From assembly GCA_000182565.2 (NCBI GenBank), contig KQ257455.1: a stretch of DNA of 64,000 bases. The stretch is one strand, 5' to 3'. The position numbers and the translations under genes were made by a program. This DNA comes from Spizellomyces punctatus DAOM BR117 (lineage: Eukaryota). Every line of letters begins with the position of its first letter. The first letter of the stretch is position 1. The notes below the pieces were generated by a model, which did not search any database, was not told the origin of the DNA, and was given only the letters and a program-made list of their open reading frames with translations. This document shows positions 2,572-54,735 of the stretch, in pieces.

Positions 2572-2705
2572 CCCCCCCCCCCCNNNNNNNNNNNNNNNNN
2601 NNNNNNNNNNNNNNNNNNNNNNNNNNNNNNNNNNNNNNNNNNNNNNNNNNNNNNNNNNNNNNNNNNNNNNNNNNNNNNNNNNNCCCCCCCCCCCCCCCCC
2701 CCCCC
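2572..2705. other. Assembly gap (N run) flanked by poly-C
   Basis: N run with C homopolymers on both sides. Confidence 0.95.
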
Positions 2706-3461
2706 TATCGTCATGCGGTCAACATTCCTGATACTTCTTGTAAACTAACCGGGCTGAACCACCTAACGATTTGTGCCTTCCGATTGGGACAACTCACATG
2801 CATGAAGCATGAATGTTTTACTTTTTTTTCCGGTTTTGCTCGAAATCTCTGCAGGCAGGTTGTTATTTGACAGCCTATTACTTGGCGAGTCAGGCGAACG
2901 TCCACATTGCGCATGGCTTGACCCCTTTTTTCTTTTTGCTGAGTCGGCCGACAGCATGGTACCATTGGTCATAATGTTTGTTTAATGATAATCATTCTCA
3001 TGTCTAAGGCGTGATGGAACATTGTCATCTGGTGAGGCAGGATGAGGAACGATACCAGAGTGAGCCCACCGTGCGTGCAATGCACTTGAACAAAAGACCT
3101 GAAAAATAATAACACAAAACGCAAATACAGAAGATGCGGAAGTTATATTCCGTGGATGCACTTCTCTATATCCTATATTATGTGTATGCCCCGGTCAAAA
3201 GTCTTTTATTTTCACCACATGTAGCCAGGATTTTTAAACCACTTTGAGATCAAACATGGGAAATTGCCACATATAACTGCCCAATGTGTACACCTACATA
3301 CTTGACTTTTGTTGATTATATATAGCAGAGATATAGGGAAAGAAAGGCAGCGGGCCAGGGTATTTGCGATGTGTGTATGGTGGCATCCTGATTCAACACG
3401 CTCACCGTCGTGTCAGTCCTGCATTTAGTCACGTGAGTACTTGCTGTCAACGAGTGCATCA

Positions 3462-4217
3462 TAGTGTGGAGGCGATTGAAAATGGCACTAGGACCCGTTA
3501 TTATCCGGATGAATCCGGTTAATCATATCGCATAATCAGAACCCCCCTCTATCGCTCAGATTGGTGTGGCATGTATTGTAATGTTTTTTTTTAAACTGCG
3601 GTGAGGCGCATGCCAGAGGTCTATAGAAGGGGGGCCTTTTCCCTCTTTCCTCTTTACCCATCCTTGACTCGAAGCATCTGTGCAGCGCTCATTGCGACCC
3701 ACATTGCAACCTCATAGCGACTCACACAACCTCATCGCGACTCGGCCAACCATGAGAACGCCGATGTGGTGGTGTCGAGGACCTTGACCGCCCGACAGCA
3801 ACCATGACCAGAACCAGTGGCAACCAATCGGATCTGATAACAAAACCTACTATTATGCTGCCACATTAGTTGAGCTTGGCTGGTATGTATCGATGGCATT
3901 TCTTGCATTTCTTGTCATTGGGTCATCTTCTGACATGCAGTTTTTTTCTCTAGTCTCCAAGCCTTGTCACTGAACATCCTCCACCTTGCGAGTCTCCCCA
4001 ATGTTGCGAAGACTCTGGCTTCAATGCCATCAAGAGTTCTGGATCAAGGCCTAGTAGGGACCGCATGTGGTGGTGGGCAGTTATCCGGTTAGAACCAACC
4101 GTTACGTATTGCGTGTATAATTGCGTAGTAGTAGCTTAGTTAGCTTTTCCGAACCGGTTGTCGCCGGTTTATTCCCTGGTGTAGTAGCTAGTGCCATTTT
4201 CTGTCACCTCTACACTA
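3462..4217 (+). mobile_element. Non-autonomous Spu-1-like TIR element (Fanzor 'ghost' locus, no Fanzor ORF)
   Basis: Left end TAGTGTGGAGGCGATTGAAAATGGCACTAG (3462-3491) matches the reverse complement of the right end 4188-4217 (TAGTGTAGAGGTGACAGAAAATGGCACTAG) at 26/30; TA at both ends; CATA at 3460-3463. Confidence 0.9.
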
Positions 4218-4232
4218 AGATACAAGTACTCA
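4144..4232 (+). ncRNA. Fanzor1 omegaRNA (scaffold ~4144-4217 plus ~15-nt guide from the flank)
   Basis: TTTTCCGAACCGGTTGTCGCCGGTTTATTCCCTGGTGTAGTAGCTAGTGCC...CTACACTA closely resembles the SpuFz1 omegaRNA as I recall it; stem AACCGG 4152-4157/CCGGTT 4164-4169; pairing GGTGTAG 4178-4184/CTACACT 4210-4216. Confidence 0.85.
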
Positions 4233-4536
4233 AGCAAAACAAACTCGCATTTACTCAGATCAACAAATGTGTTTCATATGGAACCGTTTCAAATTCCATA
4301 ATGGATGTCTAATGTCGGAATGTTCTATCTGTTCGAGAAACTGCACCTTGGAGAGCTAGTATGTTACTCGGATGATGATGATGAAATTGAAAGAGCTTTC
4401 TCTGAGATTGCTTAGTTTCTCCACATCGAGCGGAACTTTCTAATGCTACGTCATGGCCTAAACCAGCAGGTGCATGCGTGGTTATGGCAACCGGTAATTT
4501 GTATCCGCTGGGTGAGCTTCTAAACCTGGCGAGACA

Positions 4537-5382
4537 ATGGACATAGCCGAGGTTCGGGACAAGGTATTTGGGTACCTTTCTTATGTAGAACTCAAGCGCC
4601 TAGCTACGACTTGCAGAACATGGAAGACCTCCTCTGATTACGCTGCTGAAAAATTGCAGTGCATCCTTTCTTTTGAAGGACGCAAAGCATTGACTCTGTA
4701 TCTGTCCCGCACAAACTACAATGAGGGAGGCGAATGGAAACATTACATTCCGCAAACCCCTGTAAAGGTAGATTGGAACTTTTTGTCAGTGCACATCAAG
4801 TTTCCCAATGGACGGGAGATCACTGGCATCAAGTTTCCCAATGGGCGGGAGATCACTGGACCGAAATTCGAGATCCTTCGGACTTATCCGTATGTCAGCC
4901 TGCGCATGGGCGGTGAAGAAGTCGGTAACATATCTGTCATTTTGGAAGACAGCTTTCGCTTGCGCTGGAAAAGATGGAACATGCACGACCTAACTATCGC
5001 GGCCCCTGGTAAAGCATTCTACTCGCCCGAATTGACAGCTGTTTACGACGAATGCCCAAAAGACGGCAAGACCATGGATGTTCTCATCAGTCCGGGAGAC
5101 AACCGGTACATCAATCTCCTCGCTAGTGGATCGATGGAGGTGATGGACAGGCTTTCCAGTTACCATAATTTGTTGAATTTGGTCAGCCACTTGGAGCTCA
5201 TGAAAGCCTCGGACGATGCCATTCGGCGCCGGAAGACGCAAGCAGTAGAAGACCTCATGAGGCCTAATGATCGCTTGGGTGCCGCGATACGTCGATACTT
5301 GCAGTGTGACGTTGGAAGTGCAGTAGATGTCTATGATACGTTGTCTAAATGGAGGACTTCGGGATTAAACACCATGAATTGA
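4537..5382 (+). CDS. Intronless 281-aa protein with N-terminal F-box-like motif
   Basis: AEVRDKVFGYLSYVELKRLATTCRTWK fits the F-box pattern; long uninterrupted ORF. Confidence 0.6.
   Translation: MDIAEVRDKVFGYLSYVELKRLATTCRTWKTSSDYAAEKLQCILSFEGRKALTLYLSRTNYNEGGEWKHYIPQTPVKVDWNFLSVHIKFPNGREITGIKFPNGREITGPKFEILRTYPYVSLRMGGEEVGNISVILEDSFRLRWKRWNMHDLTIAAPGKAFYSPELTAVYDECPKDGKTMDVLISPGDNRYINLLASGSMEVMDRLSSYHNLLNLVSHLELMKASDDAIRRRKTQAVEDLMRPNDRLGAAIRRYLQCDVGSAVDVYDTLSKWRTSGLNTMN
4794..4859 (+). repeat. 33-bp in-frame tandem duplication (IKFPNGREITG x2)
   Basis: CATCAAGTTTCCCAATGG(A/G)CGGGAGATCACTGG twice with one mismatch. Confidence 0.95.
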
Positions 5383-5394
5383 ACAAATGCGTGT

Positions 5395-5496
5395 AGTCAT
5401 GGTAACGATTACCACATCATTGAGCTGCTGTTGAGTTAGTGGTTCAGCTGTAAGTCATGGTAACGATTACCACGGCATTGAGCTGCAGTTGAGTTG
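5395..5496. repeat. Direct repeat with 58-bp period, each copy containing a TGGTAA-CGA-TTACCA hairpin
   Basis: AGTCATGGTAACGATTACCAC..CATTGAGCTGC.GTTGAGTT at 5395 and 5453. Confidence 0.85.
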
Positions 5497-5624
5497 TTCT
5501 GTTGATTTGTCAAAAAAACCCAAGTTGCTCAAATTACTAGACAAGTATCCCGACAAACCATTGGTTCTCCTTGAGTAGGCATCCCCGTGTCACCACGGAA
5601 TACGTCGGATGCAACAAGGAATTT

Positions 5625-5996: not shown

Positions 5997-6248
5997 ATGT
6001 ACTTTTTTTCGACACAGAGAACAGGAATCATGTGTTATATACTTGTTTCCATCTTGAACTTTATTGTGGACGTGATTGTAAATATAGCCACTTTGATTGT
6101 GGAAATTGTCACGTTCCCCTTTCGGTTGCTTGCCGACTGCTTTGCCCGGTGCAGGAACGACCACGAGAACACGTCGATGGGGCTGGAATTGGAGAAGACG
6201 CAACTACTTTGGATCGAGAAAGGTGAGAAGTACGAAAATTTAGACTGA
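5997..6248 (+). CDS. Small hypothetical membrane protein
   Basis: Hydrophobic stretch CYILVSILNFIVDVIVNIATLIVEIVTFPF; 3' end overlaps the convergent ORF 6240-6620. Confidence 0.4.
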   Translation: MYFFSTQRTGIMCYILVSILNFIVDVIVNIATLIVEIVTFPFRLLADCFARCRNDHENTSMGLELEKTQLLWIEKGEKYENLD

Positions 6249-7085: not shown

Positions 7086-9120
7086 TCACGGTCTTGTGTA
7101 GATGGGGAGTTCATGATGCTGAACAATATTCAGGGTGTTCTGAAGAATGAGGTGTACAGCGGCTATGTTCCTGAAACCAAAAAATACCAACGATTACAGG
7201 TTGACCGACGAAATCAAAATTTCTTTTCTCCTACCGCTCGTAAAACTTGTCACGACCACCGTGAGCTTCGGTATTTGAACAAGCGCTCACCCTCCACACC
7301 TCTCGACCTTCTTCCACTTCGTGTCGCTTCACCTTTTTATGGCATGTTGGACACACTTGGCTGGAGTTAAATTCGCGCCAGTAAGAAAGCTCAGCCTCAC
7401 CCATCGATCGAGGTGGTTGCGGACGCCCCTTCTGAGGAGTTTTTCGAAACGCCCTTGGGGCTCGTCGCGCTGCCCGGCATGTTGTGGTGGAAATCACCGT
7501 CGCCCCAAATAACGACAAGATCGTTCATTGGAACTCCAGCAGGAAAGAAGCGGCGTAAGAATTCTCCCTCGGCTCTCTTAATACAGATGTGTCGGTCTAG
7601 TCTGAGTCGGCGTACTTTTCTCAGGCCCGTGAACTTCAGTCGCTTCGCCAATGTTCGATAGGTAAAGGCAACAAGTTGAGCATACTCAGCGGCACTGCAA
7701 CGTCGGCTATAGTTTTGAGCATCCTTGTAAATTGACTTGATACCATATCGAGGATCTGCTTGCCATTTCTTACGCCACAACTCCCGTTTCCGCTCTCCTG
7801 TAATCTCCCGCCGATATCTTCTGCTGAAGAGCGCGAAGTGTCCATAGCTACTTCGTTTAGGCTTTTGACAACTCGCTTGTGGCCAGAACTGACCCCTTTC
7901 TTGCTTGCGTCTGCCACGCCACCTTGCATTTCGCTTTATACGTCTTTTCCTTCCTCGCGGTTTCGACTTCCTTTGTACCCAGCGTCTTTGCTTTCGGAAG
8001 CGATGGTGCTGACTACGATTCAGATAATAGGGTTGGTATTGAACTTGTCCATCCACGAGGTGCGAACCGATTTGGTAATAGCCAGCAGCAATGATAGGAT
8101 CTTTGTTCGTATCCACCGAGATGATCACTTTGTTCAGTAGGTTTTCTGGGCGAACTTTTGAAAGCTCTGATAGCGTGGACGGGCGGATTCCAGAAACTTG
8201 ATTGACAGATTCCCATTGTTCATAAGCTTTCCGGCGCGTACGATTCATGGTATTCACCAGCACCCCTGCACAGACACCGTCCGTCAAAATCATGTAGTGG
8301 AAGCTCCGGTCAGTATAGGCCCGCTCTGGATCAGGGACTACCTTTCCCACATCGAAGACGCTGCTCCAGACCTTTCGCCAGTGTTCTTGACCTTTTCCCC
8401 TCGTCCCCACCAGTCCACCAAGGCCCAGACTATCCAGCGTGATCGGTTGCCATGCGTCGCCAAATTCAGGGAGCAGAGGAAAGTCGTCAACGAGGCGACC
8501 ACCTCGGTAGTCCGTCTTTGCGAGATCCTTTTGCTCATCCATGCTCTTCCCCTTCAATAGCTCGCGCCAACTGTCCCTCTCCTGCTCAAAGCGCTTACGA
8601 ATCCGGTAGAGAAGATCAAAGTATTGCCCCCAATGCTCGTAAATGTCCTTTTCTTTGAGCGATATGCCTAGAAGAAAATCTCTTTTCGCCTCCTCAAAAG
8701 CTTCGGTGCTGACGGTTAACATCTTGCGCACGGATGCCTTTTGGACGTAGTGTTCTTTAGCGAATTTGCCCAGCGAAGGCAAGGAAACGTTTTGTTGTCT
8801 AATCGAATGTCTAATATATATCGACATTCCTATTATATATGTATATACATTGATATTTGTATATGTGTGTGCAGATTCTTTGCAATTCTGCCAATTACTG
8901 ACTGCATTTTTCCTACCATACTCACCTTGATCCATAGTGCTGTTGTCGTCGCCGTCATCAGATTCTTTCACTCTCCTCCTCCTCCACAGCCGCGCTCTTG
9001 CGCCATAGTGTGCTGCAGAGAATATATCAACTTTTAATCGGAATAATTCGATTTACCTTTCACTCTGATGGCGTGCAAACTTGCCCCCATATTTTGATAA
9101 TCTTTTCCACCTTTTGAACC
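7086..9120 (-). pseudogene. Fz1: Fanzor1 (eukaryotic TnpB-derived RNA-guided nuclease), intron-containing and frame-disrupted
   Basis: FPLLP..ITLDS, FHYMILTDGVCAGVLV, RuvC-I ISVDTNK (D 8111-8113), LVVIWGD, RuvC-II REFNSSQVCPTC (E 7372-7374), SACSNTEAH; after intron 7234-7171 it reads YERNIAAVHLI...RP-stop (7086-7088). Frame changes at ~7395-7460. Probable further introns at 8925-8830 and near 9015-9055; 5' end uncertain. Confidence 0.88.
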
Positions 9121-10521: not shown

Positions 10522-11195
10522 GAGCAGAACACGGCTGCAAGTGGGACTAACTAAACAGGACCCTAACCCCACACCCTCTNNNNNNNNNNNNNNNNNNNNN
10601 NNNNNNNNNNNNNNNNNNNNNNNNNNNNNNNNNNNNNNNNNNNNNNNNNNNNNNNNNNNNNNNNNNNNNNNNNNNNNNNNNNNNNNNNNNNNNNNNNNNN
10701 NNNNNNNNNNNNNNNNNNNNNNNNNNNNNNNNNNNNNNNNNNNNNNNNNNNNNNNNNNNNNNNNNNNNNNNNNNNNNNNNNNNNNNNNNNNNNNNNNNNN
10801 NNNNNNNNNNNNNNNNNNNNNNNNNNNNNNNNNNNNNNNNNNNNNNNNNNNNNNNNNNNNNNNNNNNNNNNNNNNNNNNNNNNNNNNNNNNNNNNNNNNN
10901 NNNNNNNNNNNNNNNNNNNNNNNNNNNNNNNNNNNNNNNNNNNNNNNNNNNNNNNNNNNNNNNNNNNNNNNNNNNCTAGACCCCAAAGTGGAGCAGAACA
11001 CGGCTGCGAGTGGAACTAACTAAACCGCACCCTAACCCCACACCCTACACCATCTCCCACCCCATCGCCCTCCCCATCACCCTCCCCATCCCCGACCCCG
11101 TCACCCTCCCCATCCCCGACCCCATCACCCTCCCCATCCCCGACCCCATCACCCTCCCCATCCCCTATCCATCACCTCCCTCTCCCCAAGTGGAG
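10522..11195. repeat. C-rich minisatellite / tandem array spanning an assembly gap
   Basis: GAGCAGAACACGGCTGC.AGTGG.ACTAACTAAAC...CCCTAACCCCACACCCT on both sides of the N gap, followed by about three copies of the 24-bp unit CATCACCCTCCCCATCCCCGACCC. Confidence 0.85.
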
Positions 11196-15600: not shown

Positions 15601-17272
15601 TGATGAGACAGGAGATTGCATTTTTCGATGATGAGAAGAACTCTACGGGAGCGTTGACCGCCAAGCTCGCCGAGGATGCCAACCTGGTACAAGGTCTCAC
15701 TGGACAAACTTTTGCACAGATCCTGCAATTGATCTCCAACTTTACTGTTGGACTTGGAATTGCCTTTTCAAACAGTTGGCAGCTCACACTCGTCGTTTTG
15801 GCCTGTGTGCCCTTGGTCGGGATCGGTGGTTATCTTCAGCTCAAGACCTTGACTGGTTTCGGTGAAAAGTCCAGGGAGGCTTACAAGGATGCCAACCAAA
15901 CTGCATCCGAAGCCATTGAAAGCATTCGTACCGTGCAGACGCTGACTAAGGAGGAAAAGTTCGCGTCTACCTACGCCGAGCAGATCAAGGTTCCCCATCG
16001 TATGGTAGTCAAAGGAGCGTTCGTGAGTTCCGTTGGCTTTGCCAGTGCTGAGAGTGTTATCTTTTTGACATATGCCCGTATGTATTGTGGTCTTTATCTG
16101 TGTGGAACAAGGTCGTATGTGCTGACAATCTCTGGTTTGTTAGTTGCCTTCTGGTACGGTTCTGAATTGATGCTCAAAAACACATACGATGCGAAGCAAG
16201 TCATGACAACCATGTTTTCCATCATTTTTGCTGCCATGGCTGCTGGGCAAGGTAATACTAGATGATACGCGGCCACTTTCGTTTCCATATGCCGGCTCTA
16301 ATATTCTGGCTGGTTCAATTGTCTAGTCACAAACTTTGCGCCTGATGCAGCCAAAGCCAAGCTCGCTGCCCTTGGCATCCTCGATATTCTCGACCGTACG
16401 TCTCGCATCGACGCAACCAGTACGGAAGGCGAGCGTCCTGCAAAGCCGCAGGGCCGTCCATCAACTATTGACACGCACTTTGCTTACCCTACTCGTCCCG
16501 ACATCTCTATTTTGCGGGGATTGAACATTGCGGCCGAGGTTGGAACGACCGTAGCATTGGTCGGCCACTCTGGTTGCGGTAAGAGTACCGTTCTTGGATT
16601 ATTGGAGCGCTGGTACGATGTTACAGATGGACGTGCGGAGGTGGACCAGCTCGATGTCCGCATGTGGAACTTAAAGTACCTCAGGGAACAGATGGCGCTT
16701 GTCGGACAGGTAAGCAACTTTTGTATATGGCTGCGATCTGTGAAGGGGAGCTGATGTGGCATTGACCTTGCTAGGAACCCATCCTTTTCGATGTGTCCAT
16801 CCGTGAAAACATCGCCTACGGCGCACCTGAAGGCGAGGCAACCGACGAGCAAATCGAAGCCGCCGCCCGCGCCGCCAACATTCACGATTTCGTCATTGGT
16901 CTCCCCAAAGGATACGACACAATGGTCGGCGAAAAAGGAGGCCAACTCAGTGGTGGCCAAAAGCAACGCATTGCCATTGCTCGCGCGCTCATCCGAAACC
17001 CGAAACTCCTCCTTCTAGACGAGGCGACCAGTGCCCTAGACTCTGAATCCGAAAAAGTGGTCCAAGACGCCCTCGACCGCGCTGCCAAAGGTCGTACAAC
17101 TGTAGTGATTGCACATCGTCTTTCTACCATCCAGAATGCGGATAGGATTTACGTCGTCCGCGGTGGACAGGTGGCAGAGATGGGCACCCATGCGGAATTG
17201 GTTGATCTGGGTGGGGCGTATGCCGAGTTGGTAAATCAGCAGATGCTCCACAAGGAGGAAACAACGTCATAA
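12696..17272 (+). CDS. MDR1: Full-length ABCB-type multidrug transporter (P-glycoprotein), multi-exon
   Basis: Two TMDs and two NBDs: GSSGSGKS and GHSGCGKS Walker [15 protein letters not shown] signature twice, [11 protein letters not shown] twice; GT-AG introns. Confidence 0.96.
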
Positions 17273-41948: not shown

Positions 41949-44900
41949 ATGGAGGAGAGTTTGGAACGCGCTGTGGCGGTGTCCGTGGACCCGACGGCCA
42001 ATGTAGCCCTGAAAACGGAGGCGATGGCGTTTTGCGATCAAGTGCGTAACTCGTCCAATGGCTGGCAAGTTTGCTTAAAAATCTTTGTAAAGGTCCCAAA
42101 AAGGTATTGTTGCGGGATGACCGTTTCGACTATTATTCAAGCATGGTGCTAATTTCCCAATGGCGGCGAAAGCTCGGAGCAGACACGTTTCTTCGCTCTA
42201 CATGTTTTGGAGGATGTTCTTCGGCGACGATATGCTAGTCTAAATTCCAATGAGCGAGCTGGGTTGAGGCAAACCCTGTGGAATTGGTTGGTTCACAACC
42301 TGGACGAGAGCGAGTTTGTGTACATGCGCAACAAGTTCATACAGATCGTAGTTCTTGTGTTTGCGGCTCAGTATCCCGGGGAATGGCCGAGTTTCTTTGA
42401 CGACCTTCTGTCTCTCTTGAGCTCTACATCAGGAACTCAGCGAAACTCAATCATGATAGACACGTTCTTGCGTATATCATTGGCCATTGACGATGAGGTG
42501 GCTAATCTCATGATCTCCCGAGATGCAAAGGAAACGGCGCGAAACACTCAAATCAAAGATGTTATGCGGGAGAATGCAGTAGCAAGGCTTGTTTCAGCTT
42601 GGGGTGATATCCTCATGGGGAGCTACCAAAGCGACGCAGGAATCGCCAACATGTGTCTACGTTTGTTTGCTCGCTATGTGGCATGGATTGACATCAACTT
42701 GGTTGTCAACGAAGCAATCATTTCTGGCTTGTACCAATTCTTGGGCGTAGAGTCATTGCGATTAGCAGCGTGCGAATGTCTAACAGAAATCGTCGGAAAA
42801 GGCATGAAGCCGGTAGATAAGCTAAACCTCATCCGTGCCCTTGACATCACCAATGTGTTGGGTTCCTTGCCATCGGACGATGCGGAATTTGCAGAGTATG
42901 TTGCAAGGCTTGTCAACAATTTAGGTCTCGAGCTTTGCAAATGCTGGGAAATGCAGAATATTCGGGAATCGTCCTTCCAGCTTTTGCAGCAAATCTTCCC
43001 ATATCTTATCCAGTTTCTGGCCAACGAATACGATGATACATCATCCGTCCTCTTCCCATATCTTCAAGCGTATACCGATGTCTTAAAACAGTATATCAAG
43101 TTGGGGGGCCAAGGTTCAGCGAAGCCGCTGGAGGAAAACCTCATCGCTTTGTTGAGAACCGTTATCCTTAAGATGAAGTATGACGAGGAGGAGGAGCATG
43201 AGTTTGGTCAACAGGCTGGGGAATTGGACGCACTGTTTATGGAGTTACGACAGGTCTGGACGCTCTGTTACTGGTCATTCAGACATCAGAGCACCGCAAG
43301 CTGACTCTCGCTCCCGCAGAATCTGAAAAAGCACTTCAATGCAATTGCCACCATTGATGAGGCGTTATTCGTCAATTACATTCTGTCAGTTGTGACAGAC
43401 ACCTTCGGTAAAATCGCTAGCTCGCCTGGCTCGGTGAGCTGGTCAGAAGCCGAACTTTCACTACACCTTATATATCTTCTCGGAGAGTCTGTTAAAGGTA
43501 TTGTGTCGGGTGCTATGCGGGACAATGGCCGAAGCTAATCCATGAACGTCAATTATCTAGTGCAATTTGCTGTTGGCGAGCCCCCTGCAGCTGTTGTAAC
43601 ACCACTCGGCCAGATGCTAACGAAGATGATTACAAGCAGTTAGTAGTGGTGCATATACTTTGGCACATATCAATCATTTCACTCACGCCACTTCCCTGCC
43701 CGTCAGATGTGTCAGCGTACCCACATGTTTCGATACCATTGATTTTCTTCGAAAATGTCACTCGGTATTCTCAATTCTTCGATCTTTTCCCTCAGTACAT
43801 CCCTAACGTGATGGAGGCCTTTGTTGACCAGCGGTACGACTTCGTTGATGTTAATGATGCTCTAGATCATAACGGACCACTGAACGGGATGCTTTAAAAA
43901 GGGGAATGCATCATGATGCACCCTTCGTGCGCAGCAGGACGTACTATTTGTTTCGGCAGTATGTCCAAAGTTTGAAGAGCAAGCTTTCACCTCTGGTCAA
44001 CAACGTTCTAGCAAGTATCGAGGTCTGTGTGTTGGGACCTGCCAAAGGGTTTCTTTTTGGTTTCTGAGACTGAAAACTGCAACGGGTACTTTTAGGATCT
44101 CATGGTTGTACAGCTGCCAGAACCGCAGAAACCGGTACGGGACGGAGAAGAGGAAGTGACAGCAACCAGCTTCGACAGTCAACTTTATCTTTATGAGGCC
44201 GTCGGCATCCTAATTTCGCTGGATGGTATGACCACGGAGAAGCAGGCCCAGCTGCTAACGGTTAGTAGCTAATTGTAAGCGCTCATGAAGAATGAAGAAC
44301 AGAGAACTTACCAGAAGATTATTCCATCCAAATGCAACAGGTGGTTCTTACTCCTTTGATGCGACAGATCGAGGAGATTATGCGAAATGAGCTTTATAGG
44401 CGTGATACACCGGACAACATTGTGTTCACACTACAACTAGATCATCTAATTCGGGCGATCGGGAATATCAGCAAAGGTACGCGTGGACACAGGCCTCATA
44501 CTGATTCAAGGAGTGGGAATCTCACCTTAAGCTAGGATTCCCTGACGTTGATCAGGCTTCCAAGGTGGTGCAAACCGTACCTGCATGGGCGTTAGTTTTT
44601 CAGCAGGCACTAGGGGCGATTGTTGCTGTTTTGGAGCGTTTACATGAGAGTGAATTGATTCGCAATGCGGTTCGTATTATATTTTCCCTTTTACTCGGAA
44701 ATTGACCTAACTCCAGTTCGGAATTGTAGGCACGCTTCGCTTTCCAACGGATGGTCGGCTGTATGGGTCACGACATATTAAATCACATTGGTCCTCTAAT
44801 TACGGCCGGCCTATTATCAAACAGCACACGGCAGGAATTGGTCGACTTTGTTCCTTTCATTGGGCATATTACCCACAAGTTCAAGGTACGTCCTTGGCCA

Positions 44901-51700: not shown

Positions 51701-54700
51701 GCTCCAAGAAGACGGGGCGTTAGTCAAGGACTATGGTTCGTACCATGAGGAAACGGATATTGCGTTGCAGACTGTGGTTGGCCAAGTGGAGTTTGAGGAC
51801 CCTAGATACAAGGTGTGTTCGGGAATGGCCCTGCATTTTATCAGTTGTACTGACTCTATCTTTGTGTAGGAGCAACCGGCGGCACCACTACCGCAAGAGT
51901 ACCCCCTGGGATCTCGAGTGTTCTTTTTGGGAAATCAAGGATATGGCCTGGCTGCCGATGTTGTGGGATATGACACTGAGAAGCTTCATATCAAACTCTT
52001 GGTGAGTTTACACGTGATCAATGCTCGAGAATATCAGCTGAGAAACCTGTGCCAATAGAAGCCAACAGATCCGGAACTGGTCGAAGGCTTGCACTTCACC
52101 AGGGAGAAGGCAATTGATGCAGAGCGTGGCGAACGCTACATGCCCAGCTGGCAGGTTGCGAAGCAATTGGGCATTCCTAGCTTGGCTCTCTCAAAAGTCA
52201 CGTCCAGCCTTCATGTAATCAGTAAGAAGTCCGATCAACGATACAATCTGGGGTTAAATTTGAAGTTCGAGTCCAAAAAGAGGAAAGTGCTGGGTTATTC
52301 AAGAAAGACCAGCTCTGGGTGGGAATATTCGCAAAGGGCTGTAGCGCTCATCAGGGAATACAAGGTACGCTTTCCTTTCGAGACATTGGGTTCGAGACAT
52401 GAATTTTAAACGGTCTCTCTCACATTTGCTAGGATCGATTCCCAGCTCTCTTCGTAGGATTGGAAAAGAGGTCAAGAAATGACCTTTACGAGGACACTGA
52501 GATTTACCCGGAGGAGGTGGCATCATCGAAGCTAAATGAGATTAAAGAATGGCTGAAGGAGGCGGGCGTGAAAGACTTCGAACGAGTATCGTTAGATACC
52601 AGGGCTCTGACAAAGGTGAGCTGAATTCTCGTAAGCGAACTACGTCTCGTGGAATCTGTCGCCTTATATGTTGGTCAGAATGTGATAAAGGATATTGAGG
52701 AGCGGGTCGATGAGGTCTACAAGCGAATTGGCGATGTCAAGATTAAGGCGGTGACAGTCAAGAACGTGCCTCGACCGGTACGTCGAAATCCTCTTGTTAA
52801 ATATATCACAAATCTTACACTTTCCGGTATTTATCCTTGCAGGCTGTTTTAAAACCAGCACACGCACGACATCGCTTGTCACATCAAGTGTTTGACCTCG
52901 GGGATCGCGTGATGTATGCCATGGACTCCGGCAGTGTGCCCTTAGCGGCACAGGGCACGGTCGTTGGCATGGAGGGTAATTTTCTGGATGTTGTTTTCGA
53001 TCAAATGTTCATGGGTGGTAGCAGCCTTGGGGACAGGTGAGCGACTCTACAGAAATTCGCGGCGATCTGTGCTGTTTTCTAATAGCCCGCTCATGCCAGA
53101 TGCCAACCGAATCGCGGATTGGTGGTTAACAAGGACGCGGTACTTAACCTGACTCATATGCAGCCTCCGATCGAAGGTAGCCGACCAAGCCAAGTCATAC
53201 CAATTAATCGGCCAATTCCCAGATTTGCCATGCGTTCTGGAGGAAACGCTCTAGCACAGCAGCAGAATTCTGCCCATAAATCATCAGCGCCACCGATAAA
53301 AAATGCGTGGACGGAAGGTGGTCCTACCATCATGGCGCGCAACGCTGGTCCACGGTCTGGTTTCAACGAACCCCCGAGATTCGAAAATCAAGAACGAAGT
53401 GACGCCGGGAAAAGGCATACGTTTGCGGGCGCTTCCGGTGTGACAATCGCCATCACGAAGCACTCCACCCCTGTACGGTCAACAGGCGGTAATGTCGTCC
53501 CTAAAAACTCTCAGCCAAGTGTGACGAGCGTAGCGAAAGAAAACGTCAGACGCAAGCCGCATCCATCTCGTCCGGAGGTAGCTGCACCGTCGAATAGTGT
53601 TCTTCCTAACGGATCCGCGATAAAGATCCAGCATGAGCATGAAAAGGCGGACTCTACGAAACGCAGTGCGCCGTCAAAGCCCACTCACCAAGGAGGGGCA
53701 GGCGAGCAACTGAAAACTGGTCTAATCCGCAACTCCGGTACATCTGCACCACCTATTCATGCAGTATCCTCGGCAACGCCTGAAGCCAACGAGACGGCAA
53801 CAGCAGCCGGATATAGTGGGTTACCACCTAGTGGGTCGACGGACGAAGCGGACATGATCACGCAGAGTTTGAAGACCATGCTGCATATCGGCAATAACCA
53901 CCCGCCGCCAGCCACAACGGTTCCCCTCATGCAAGTTCCGGTTGGGTTTCAACCAATTCAAATGGTTCCTGTAGGGATGCCAGTTTTCACCCAGCCACAC
54001 TTTCCGATGTCAATGGCTCCGGCAATCCCAATACAGTACGGAACAGCGCCACATGGCCCTCCACAGGCTATTGTGATGGATCCCAACAACTTGGAAGTAT
54101 CCCGACAACTAATGGCAATGCTGCAGCCTCAACAAGCCGCGCAGCCACACATGCTGGCCAGCTTTTCTCCATACACCGTTGCTGCCGGTGCAATGCCAGT
54201 TCAGCCGGTACAGAACGAGCTAGCAGAGTTAATCAAGCATAAGGAACCTGCTGGACGAGGAAGGGGACGTGGAGCTGCTGGAGTACCTGGACCAAGGAGA
54301 AGTACTGCTACCGGCACGGGAGATGTGATTCAATCGAGTGAGGAACAAGGTTCTACATCGCAGGAACCAGAGGAAACGATGGACGTTGAACATGAAGGTG
54401 AGGAGGGAACAGGGGAAGTAAATCGGGATCCTGGAACTCACCAAGATCGCGGGCGTGGACGTGGACGTGGAGCCTTCCGCGGACAACATCAAAATCAAAG
54501 ATGGTCTGGCGGTGGATATGTACCGAGAGGCGGGTATGGATATGGACCCATGCAACAAAATGGAGGGTACAATTGGAGAGGTGGAAGGGGACGAGGTACC
54601 GGAGGCTCTTATGGGAATGGTACACACCAAGGCGGTGGGGGTCAGGGCGGTTTCCATGATAATCGAGGGCGGGGTCGTGGCGGATATCATGGAGGTGAAA

Positions 54701-54735
54701 GTGGAAGTCGAGGGCGTGGCCGTGGTTTCACCTAG
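48779..54735 (+). CDS. XRN1: 5'-3' exoribonuclease 1, multi-exon
   Basis: MGIPKFFRWISERYP, LYLDMNGIIHNCSH, DGVAPRAKMNQQRARRF, GEGEHKIM, YGLDADL, GNDFLP; XRN1-type C-terminal domains and RGG tail. Confidence 0.97.

Follow-up and report, generated by a model that had tools for sequence, protein, structure and literature searches.

A probable ghost Spu-1 element of the Fanzor family, with a candidate omegaRNA gene at its right end, in Spizellomyces punctatus

Does a protein-less segment of the Spizellomyces punctatus DAOM BR117 genome, bounded by short inverted repeats, belong to the Fanzor elements, and could it supply a guide RNA to a Fanzor protein made elsewhere? The question arose from a preliminary description made from the letters of the window, by which we mean the whole 64-kb stretch of DNA analyzed here. 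That description placed a Fanzor transposon without its protein at 3460..4237, and gave it an omegaRNA with a guide derived from the flanking DNA.

Elements of this kind are known from the same strain. Saito et al. 2023 (PMC10432273) reported Fz genes, whether full-length or partial, at 42 loci of S. punctatus DAOM BR117, alongside 134 'ghost Spu-1' loci, which have the repeats without an Fz ORF. According to that text, the inverted repeats of the ghosts are 30 nt long and unlike those of the Fz loci at seven positions. A CA is conserved upstream of the left repeat, an interior of about 550 nt is conserved, and the right end consists of a 75-nt region similar to the Fz omegaRNA, in which stem 2 has a 3-nt bulge. 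The Fz loci yield RNAs of 88-90 nt that reach 14-15 nt into the variable flank, and the canonical scaffold is made of two stems and a 6-nt linker running from A29 to C34. The TAM of SpuFz1 is given as 5'-CATA. The preliminary description had named this TAM and a right-end omegaRNA with a guide from the flank, in agreement with the published account.

The ghost omegaRNAs of four loci were reported to edit with SpuFz1 in human cells at a level equal to that of the extended canonical RNA, and the discussion of the same paper proposed the ghost loci as suppliers of guides to Fanzor in trans (PMC10432273). A paper of 2026 (PMC13434818) listed 126 unique ghost scaffolds (gst1-126) of 74-76 nt and tested representatives. 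The full-length element, SPu-1, was described by Bao and Jurka 2013 (PMC3627910) as about 2.1 kb long, having TIRs of 33 bp, putative duplications of TA and only one ORF, which is TnpB-like.

Ends, junctions and interior of the element

A search for inverted repeats (seed 11, minimum length 24, arms up to 4 kb apart) returned only two pairs in the whole 64-kb window. The top pair was 3462-3491 and 4188-4217. The left arm (plus strand) agreed with the reverse complement of the right arm at 26 of 30 positions, and the 30-bp TIRs claimed earlier were thus recovered. The element they bound is 756 bp long (3462-4217). A 14-nt core of the TIRs was exact at both ends, at a threshold of up to two mismatches for which 0.55 occurrences were expected in the window.

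Both ends of the element read TA (3462-3463 and 4216-4217). As read in this single copy, the TA may be a target-site duplication or a part of the repeat. The left TIR was adjoined by CA (3460-3461, likewise read in one copy), and together with the TA at 3462-3463 it makes the left junction CATA (3460-3463, plus strand). This equals the published TAM of SpuFz1 (PMC10432273). The TA ends and the CATA had both been noticed in the preliminary description, and the start it gave, 3460, is the CA of this junction. The end it gave, 4237, was not sustained, since it lies 5 nt beyond the end of the guide at 4232.

The match between the two TIRs continued for 7 nt past the TA ends, with five of the seven positions agreeing (3455-3461 versus 4218-4224). 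An insertion site that is weakly palindromic, a target-site preference or chance could explain this extension. In addition, 10 nt of the left flank (3434-3443) formed a perfect inverted match to the final 10 nt of the putative guide (4223-4232). This match was equalled by 11 of 2000 shuffles of 45-nt flanks, which were picked post hoc, and by 50 of 500 shuffles of 200-nt flanks, and is probably due to chance. The first five positions of the guide are mismatched at 3434-3443, which is therefore not a guide target. Nesting of the element in a larger palindromic element was unsupported, as the 10-nt match was reached so often with the longer flanks.

The 696 nt between the TIRs were free of genes. 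The longest ORF touching the element was 63 aa (4121-4312), and a Pfam scan of seven small ORFs at the element gave no match below E 0.03, which bears out the earlier statement that no Fanzor-like ORF lies inside. The non-coding part of the interior that precedes the scaffold (3492..4143) contained three tandem units at 3684-3746, each of 20-23 nt and 70-80% alike. About 74 nt of this part (3879-3952) are missing from some other copies of the element. Contig depth was raised across the interior. The interior was repeated across the public runs examined. Its 696 nt compare with about 550 nt published for the ghost loci (PMC10432273), and the excess is partly accounted for by the 3879-3952 segment.

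The surroundings were also scanned. Domains of Fanzor, TnpB or transposase type were absent from the 40 ORFs scanned among the 45 of at least 150 aa in the window; the other five overlap N runs. With no Fanzor-type domain in the scanned ORFs, the supply of the protein in trans is an assumption. Two long frames, 7397-9052 (minus strand, 551 aa) and 53086-54735 (plus strand, 549 aa), belonged to no Pfam family. As candidates for a Fanzor they were ruled out, having no match among PDB sequences.

An ORF of 281 aa (4537-5382, plus strand) begins 320 bp downstream of the element. Its resemblance to an F-box was weak (E 0.00026, a match that falls short of the Pfam cut-off). It contained an internal near-duplicate motif, KFPNGREITG, and had no relative but itself among 5.8 billion proteins. 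Two N runs, 2584-2683 (100 bases) and 10580-10975 (396 bases), resemble assembly gaps. The former is flanked by homopolymer-like G/C runs.

The right-end scaffold, its guide and the SpuFz1 omegaRNA

The preliminary description had placed a structured segment of about 74 nt over the right TIR. The 74 nt at 4144-4217 (plus strand), our candidate for the omegaRNA scaffold gene, folded into two stems with an MFE of -21.3 kcal/mol (z -3.71), which none of 200 shuffles equalled. Stem 1 consists of 8 bp (4151-4158 paired with 4163-4170) closed by a UGUC loop. It is followed by a 6-nt linker, AUUCCC (4171-4176), which runs from A to C. Stem 2 (4177-4217) has a 3-nt bulge and terminates at the last base of the element. 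Its 3' half is the right TIR (4188-4217, minus strand), the limits of which are supported by the match with the left TIR, by the fold, and by the divergence of contigs at 4217.

The four positions at which the TIRs mismatch all fall in this stem. In the predicted fold, 4202, 4203 and 4211 are paired, and the pairing would be lost with the left-type base. At 4206, the left-type base would yield a G-U pair.

The mirror-image RNA at the left end folded no better than its shuffles (z -0.04), and the two ends showed no likeness beyond the 30-nt TIRs (433 of 1000 shuffles scored equally). These results ruled out a mirror-image omegaRNA at the left end and indicated that the scaffold is confined to the right end.

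The putative guide is the 15 nt of right flank that follow the scaffold, AGATACAAGTACTCA (4218-4232, plus strand). Its position was set from the published lengths of scaffold and guide (PMC10432273). When scaffold and guide were folded together (4143-4232), the guide was unpaired and the z score was -2.14; 6 of 200 shuffles folded equally well. No second match to the guide with fewer than three mismatches was found in the window.

The segment was compared with the SpuFz1 omegaRNA at the 18 single canonical nucleotides that PMC10432273 mentions in its text; this is a comparison of named positions and not a full sequence alignment. Placing nucleotide 1 at 4144 and allowing a single 1-nt deletion, located between nucleotides 22 and 29, made 15 of the 18 fit. 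The start of the omegaRNA near 4144, as proposed earlier, is where this best fit falls. The score of 15 was the single highest among 127,840 offsets (the window on both strands, three shifts each). The runners-up scored 14 (twice) and 13 (eleven times), and 15 is therefore no distant outlier.

Of the misfits, G22 is replaced by C here, and C40 and G70 are replaced by U and A, which remain paired in the predicted fold. The two stems, the 6-nt linker from A to C, and the 15 of 18 nucleotides suggested that a homologue of the roughly 75-nt scaffold is present at the right end. The link to SpuFz1 appears specific, though it is an indirect one, made through 18 nucleotides and one indel.

General searches for RNA genes gave no further identification. 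An Rfam search of 3000-4800 returned three matches with E values of 1.3 to 9.5, none near significance, and no tRNA-like gene was found. A 19-mer of stem-loop 1 had no occurrence in a search of paper text. The same 19-nt stretch occurred in 51 metagenome loci, but these were rejected as chance; none holds the element, and the sole blastn match was 21 nt long.

Copies of the element in public sequencing runs

To examine copies outside the window, Logan contigs of four public runs (X1, X2, X9 and X12) were placed on 2700-5500 at 80% likeness. Family contigs were present on the element in all four runs. Summed over contigs, the depth in X1, X2 and X9 was 0-3.5 in the flanks and climbed to 40-500 (in X9, to values between hundreds and more than 100,000) only in bins 3452-4297. 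In X1 alone, it was 3-3.5 in the flanks and 40-356 in bins 3452 to 4297. The step in these three runs was about 20-fold to more than 100-fold, and it lay exactly at the repeat ends, 3462 and 4217.

The contig pieces of other copies began exactly at 3462 (two records). At 4217, six X1 contigs continued into unlike sequence, and the consensus agreement there was 0.52. The element is thus a member of a high-copy family whose ends are conserved and whose flanks differ between copies. The preliminary description had named a lack of copies with conserved ends and variable flanks as evidence against itself. Many copies were found, with the likeness stopping at 3462 and 4217, and this objection therefore falls away. 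The unique flank contigs (3023-3488 and 4189-5500) showed no difference from the window, indicating that the organism of the run is that of the window or a very near one. Soil, root and rhizosphere metagenome runs with small shares were not taken as evidence of habitat.

Within the window, blastn of 3400-4300 gave only the element and its own repeats, and no second copy. Several weaker resemblances to the TIRs were taken as chance. The stretch 6062-6091 (plus strand) matched the left TIR at 20 of 30 positions, including 18 of the first 22, and had neither a CA before it nor a partner. The stretches 1450-1479 and 17161-17190 each matched at 19 of 30 in a 30-mer scan with up to 11 mismatches. 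Two matches to the TIR core with two mismatches each, 43557-43570 (minus strand) and 43751-43764 (plus strand), lie 180 bp apart and face outward. They are probably chance as well, since no TIR-like 30-mer occurs there.

The copies varied among themselves. In some, joints from 3877-3879 to 3953 skip 73-75 nt, which is the segment 3879-3952. The copies without this segment carry TT or CTT in its place, and the family has a long and a short form. The copy in the window is therefore of the longer form. One contig skips 3724-3842.

Variation was also seen in the scaffold. The stem-1 pair 4156-4165 is G-C in the window, but a minority of copies have A and T there. The changes at 4156 and 4165 were equal in contig counts and in depth sums in X2 and X12. 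This fits a compensatory change, the same contigs presumably carrying both. The scaffold of the window copy carries the majority letters of the family, among the differences listed. Its interior differs from all placed contigs at several places, e.g. 3497, 3616, 3785 and 4125.

X12, taken by guess only to be an RNA run, had family contigs on 3697-3879 and 4010-4195. None of its contigs covered 4204-4297, which includes the 4204-4232 part leading to the end of the guide. This is no evidence against expression, as contigs cannot show the absence of an RNA.

Identity of the element and its possible role

The element shares with the ghost Spu-1 loci the 30-nt inverted repeats, the CA on the left, the lack of a Fanzor ORF and the presence in many copies (PMC10432273). 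It also shares the scaffold of 74-76 nt over the right repeat, the guide from the flank and the 3-nt bulge in stem 2 (PMC10432273, PMC13434818). The full-length SPu-1/SpuFz1 elements likewise have terminal repeats ending in TA, a right-end omegaRNA and a CATA TAM at the left junction (PMC3627910, PMC10432273). On the other hand, they are about 2.1 kb long and encode a Fanzor1 of 633-638 aa, whereas the element here is protein-less and only 756 bp. By their description in PMC10432273, seven positions also set their repeats apart from those of the ghosts, and an 8-nt loop in their stem 2 takes the place of the bulge.

A further likeness is to bacterial TnpB-omegaRNA loci of the IS200/IS605 type and their protein-less derivatives, in which a right-end guide RNA also reads into the flank. 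These too have the TAM at the left junction, so that the RNA targets the very site that the element has vacated (homing model, PMC10432273). However, IS200/IS605 elements have no TIRs, make no target duplication and are moved by the HUH transposase TnpA, whereas the element here has TIRs and TA ends.

We interpret 3462-4217, with high confidence, as a 'ghost' of the Spu-1 Fanzor family, a non-autonomous copy that has both TIRs and a right-end omegaRNA gene and has no Fanzor gene. The locus is very likely among the ghost Spu-1 loci listed in the literature. As ghost elements were described and tested in 2023 (PMC10432273), the element of the window is an ordinary member of its family and not a new one. 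The preliminary description had not noted this earlier publication.

Other readings of the same features are to be weighed against this one. That the repeats arose by chance in unique intergenic DNA would agree with the single copy seen within the 64-kb window, but the depth steps at the repeat ends in X1, X2 and X9, together with the family contigs in all four runs, refute it, and an exact 14-nt core at both ends is hard to reconcile with it; we give it practically no credence. Tc1/mariner MITEs typically have short TIRs and a TA at each end, and the element might be an ordinary MITE of such derivation, unrelated to Fanzor, with hairpins at its right end that are incidental. The absence of an Rfam match would suit such an origin, as would the fact that the link to Fanzor runs through named nucleotides and not through a direct omegaRNA alignment. 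Yet an incidental hairpin would hardly place 15 of 18 omegaRNA nucleotides at the predicted start with the top score of the window, nor would it account for structure at the right end only and a compensatory change in stem 1 among the copies. The CA, the 30-nt repeats, the 74-nt right-end scaffold and the A-to-C linker all fit the published description of the ghosts (PMC10432273), and a MITE unrelated to Fanzor appears very improbable.

A closer rival accepts the descent and disputes the function. The element could be a ghost Spu-1 that is now dead, from which no omegaRNA is loaded and which neither contributes to Fanzor targeting nor helps to maintain itself. The TIRs have drifted to 26 of 30, the interior departs from all placed contigs at the places given above, and the contigs of X12, the possible RNA run, leave 4204-4232 uncovered. 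No promoter was identified; the scan for bacterial-type promoters and terminators is uninformative for a eukaryote. Against this, the absence of an RNA is not demonstrable from contigs, and the scaffold folds well and keeps the family majority letters. In addition, ghost omegaRNAs of four other loci were functional in the published assays (PMC10432273). We consider a dead copy rather unlikely, while giving it real weight.

If the ghost Spu-1 element is active in the way suggested for its family, transcription of its right end would give an RNA of about 89-90 nt, made up of the 74-nt scaffold and the 15-nt guide from the flank (4218-4232). This omegaRNA would be bound by a Fanzor protein encoded at another locus of the genome, in a full-length Spu-1 copy. 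Were the element lost with one TA left behind, CATA would stand directly before the guide target (AGATACAAGTACTCA). The Fanzor RNP could then cut the emptied CATA-plus-target site, and repair from a filled copy might restore the element, by analogy with the homing model for TnpB (discussion of PMC10432273).

Much of this picture is already on record. The protein-less Spu-1 ghosts appeared in print in 2023, together with the CATA TAM, the ghost omegaRNAs and the use of these RNAs with SpuFz1 in trans, and a systematic mining of the scaffolds followed in 2026. What this copy adds is a scaffold at the right end only, TIR differences that are tied to the predicted pairing of stem 2, and one covarying pair in stem 1. 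It also indicates that an element of the ghost Spu-1 kind can be recognized from raw sequence alone.

A more speculative proposal is that the ghost elements are kept by selection and are not decaying debris. It draws on the switch between G-C and A-U at 4156-4165, on the conserved and possibly transcribed interior, and on the longer sub-form with its extra 74 nt or so. We regard it as doubtful on present evidence. If it were true, the interior could serve the omegaRNA as a promoter or a precursor. Selection would then be maintaining the ghosts as a reserve of guides, with which Fanzor could act in trans to restore sites or to target them.
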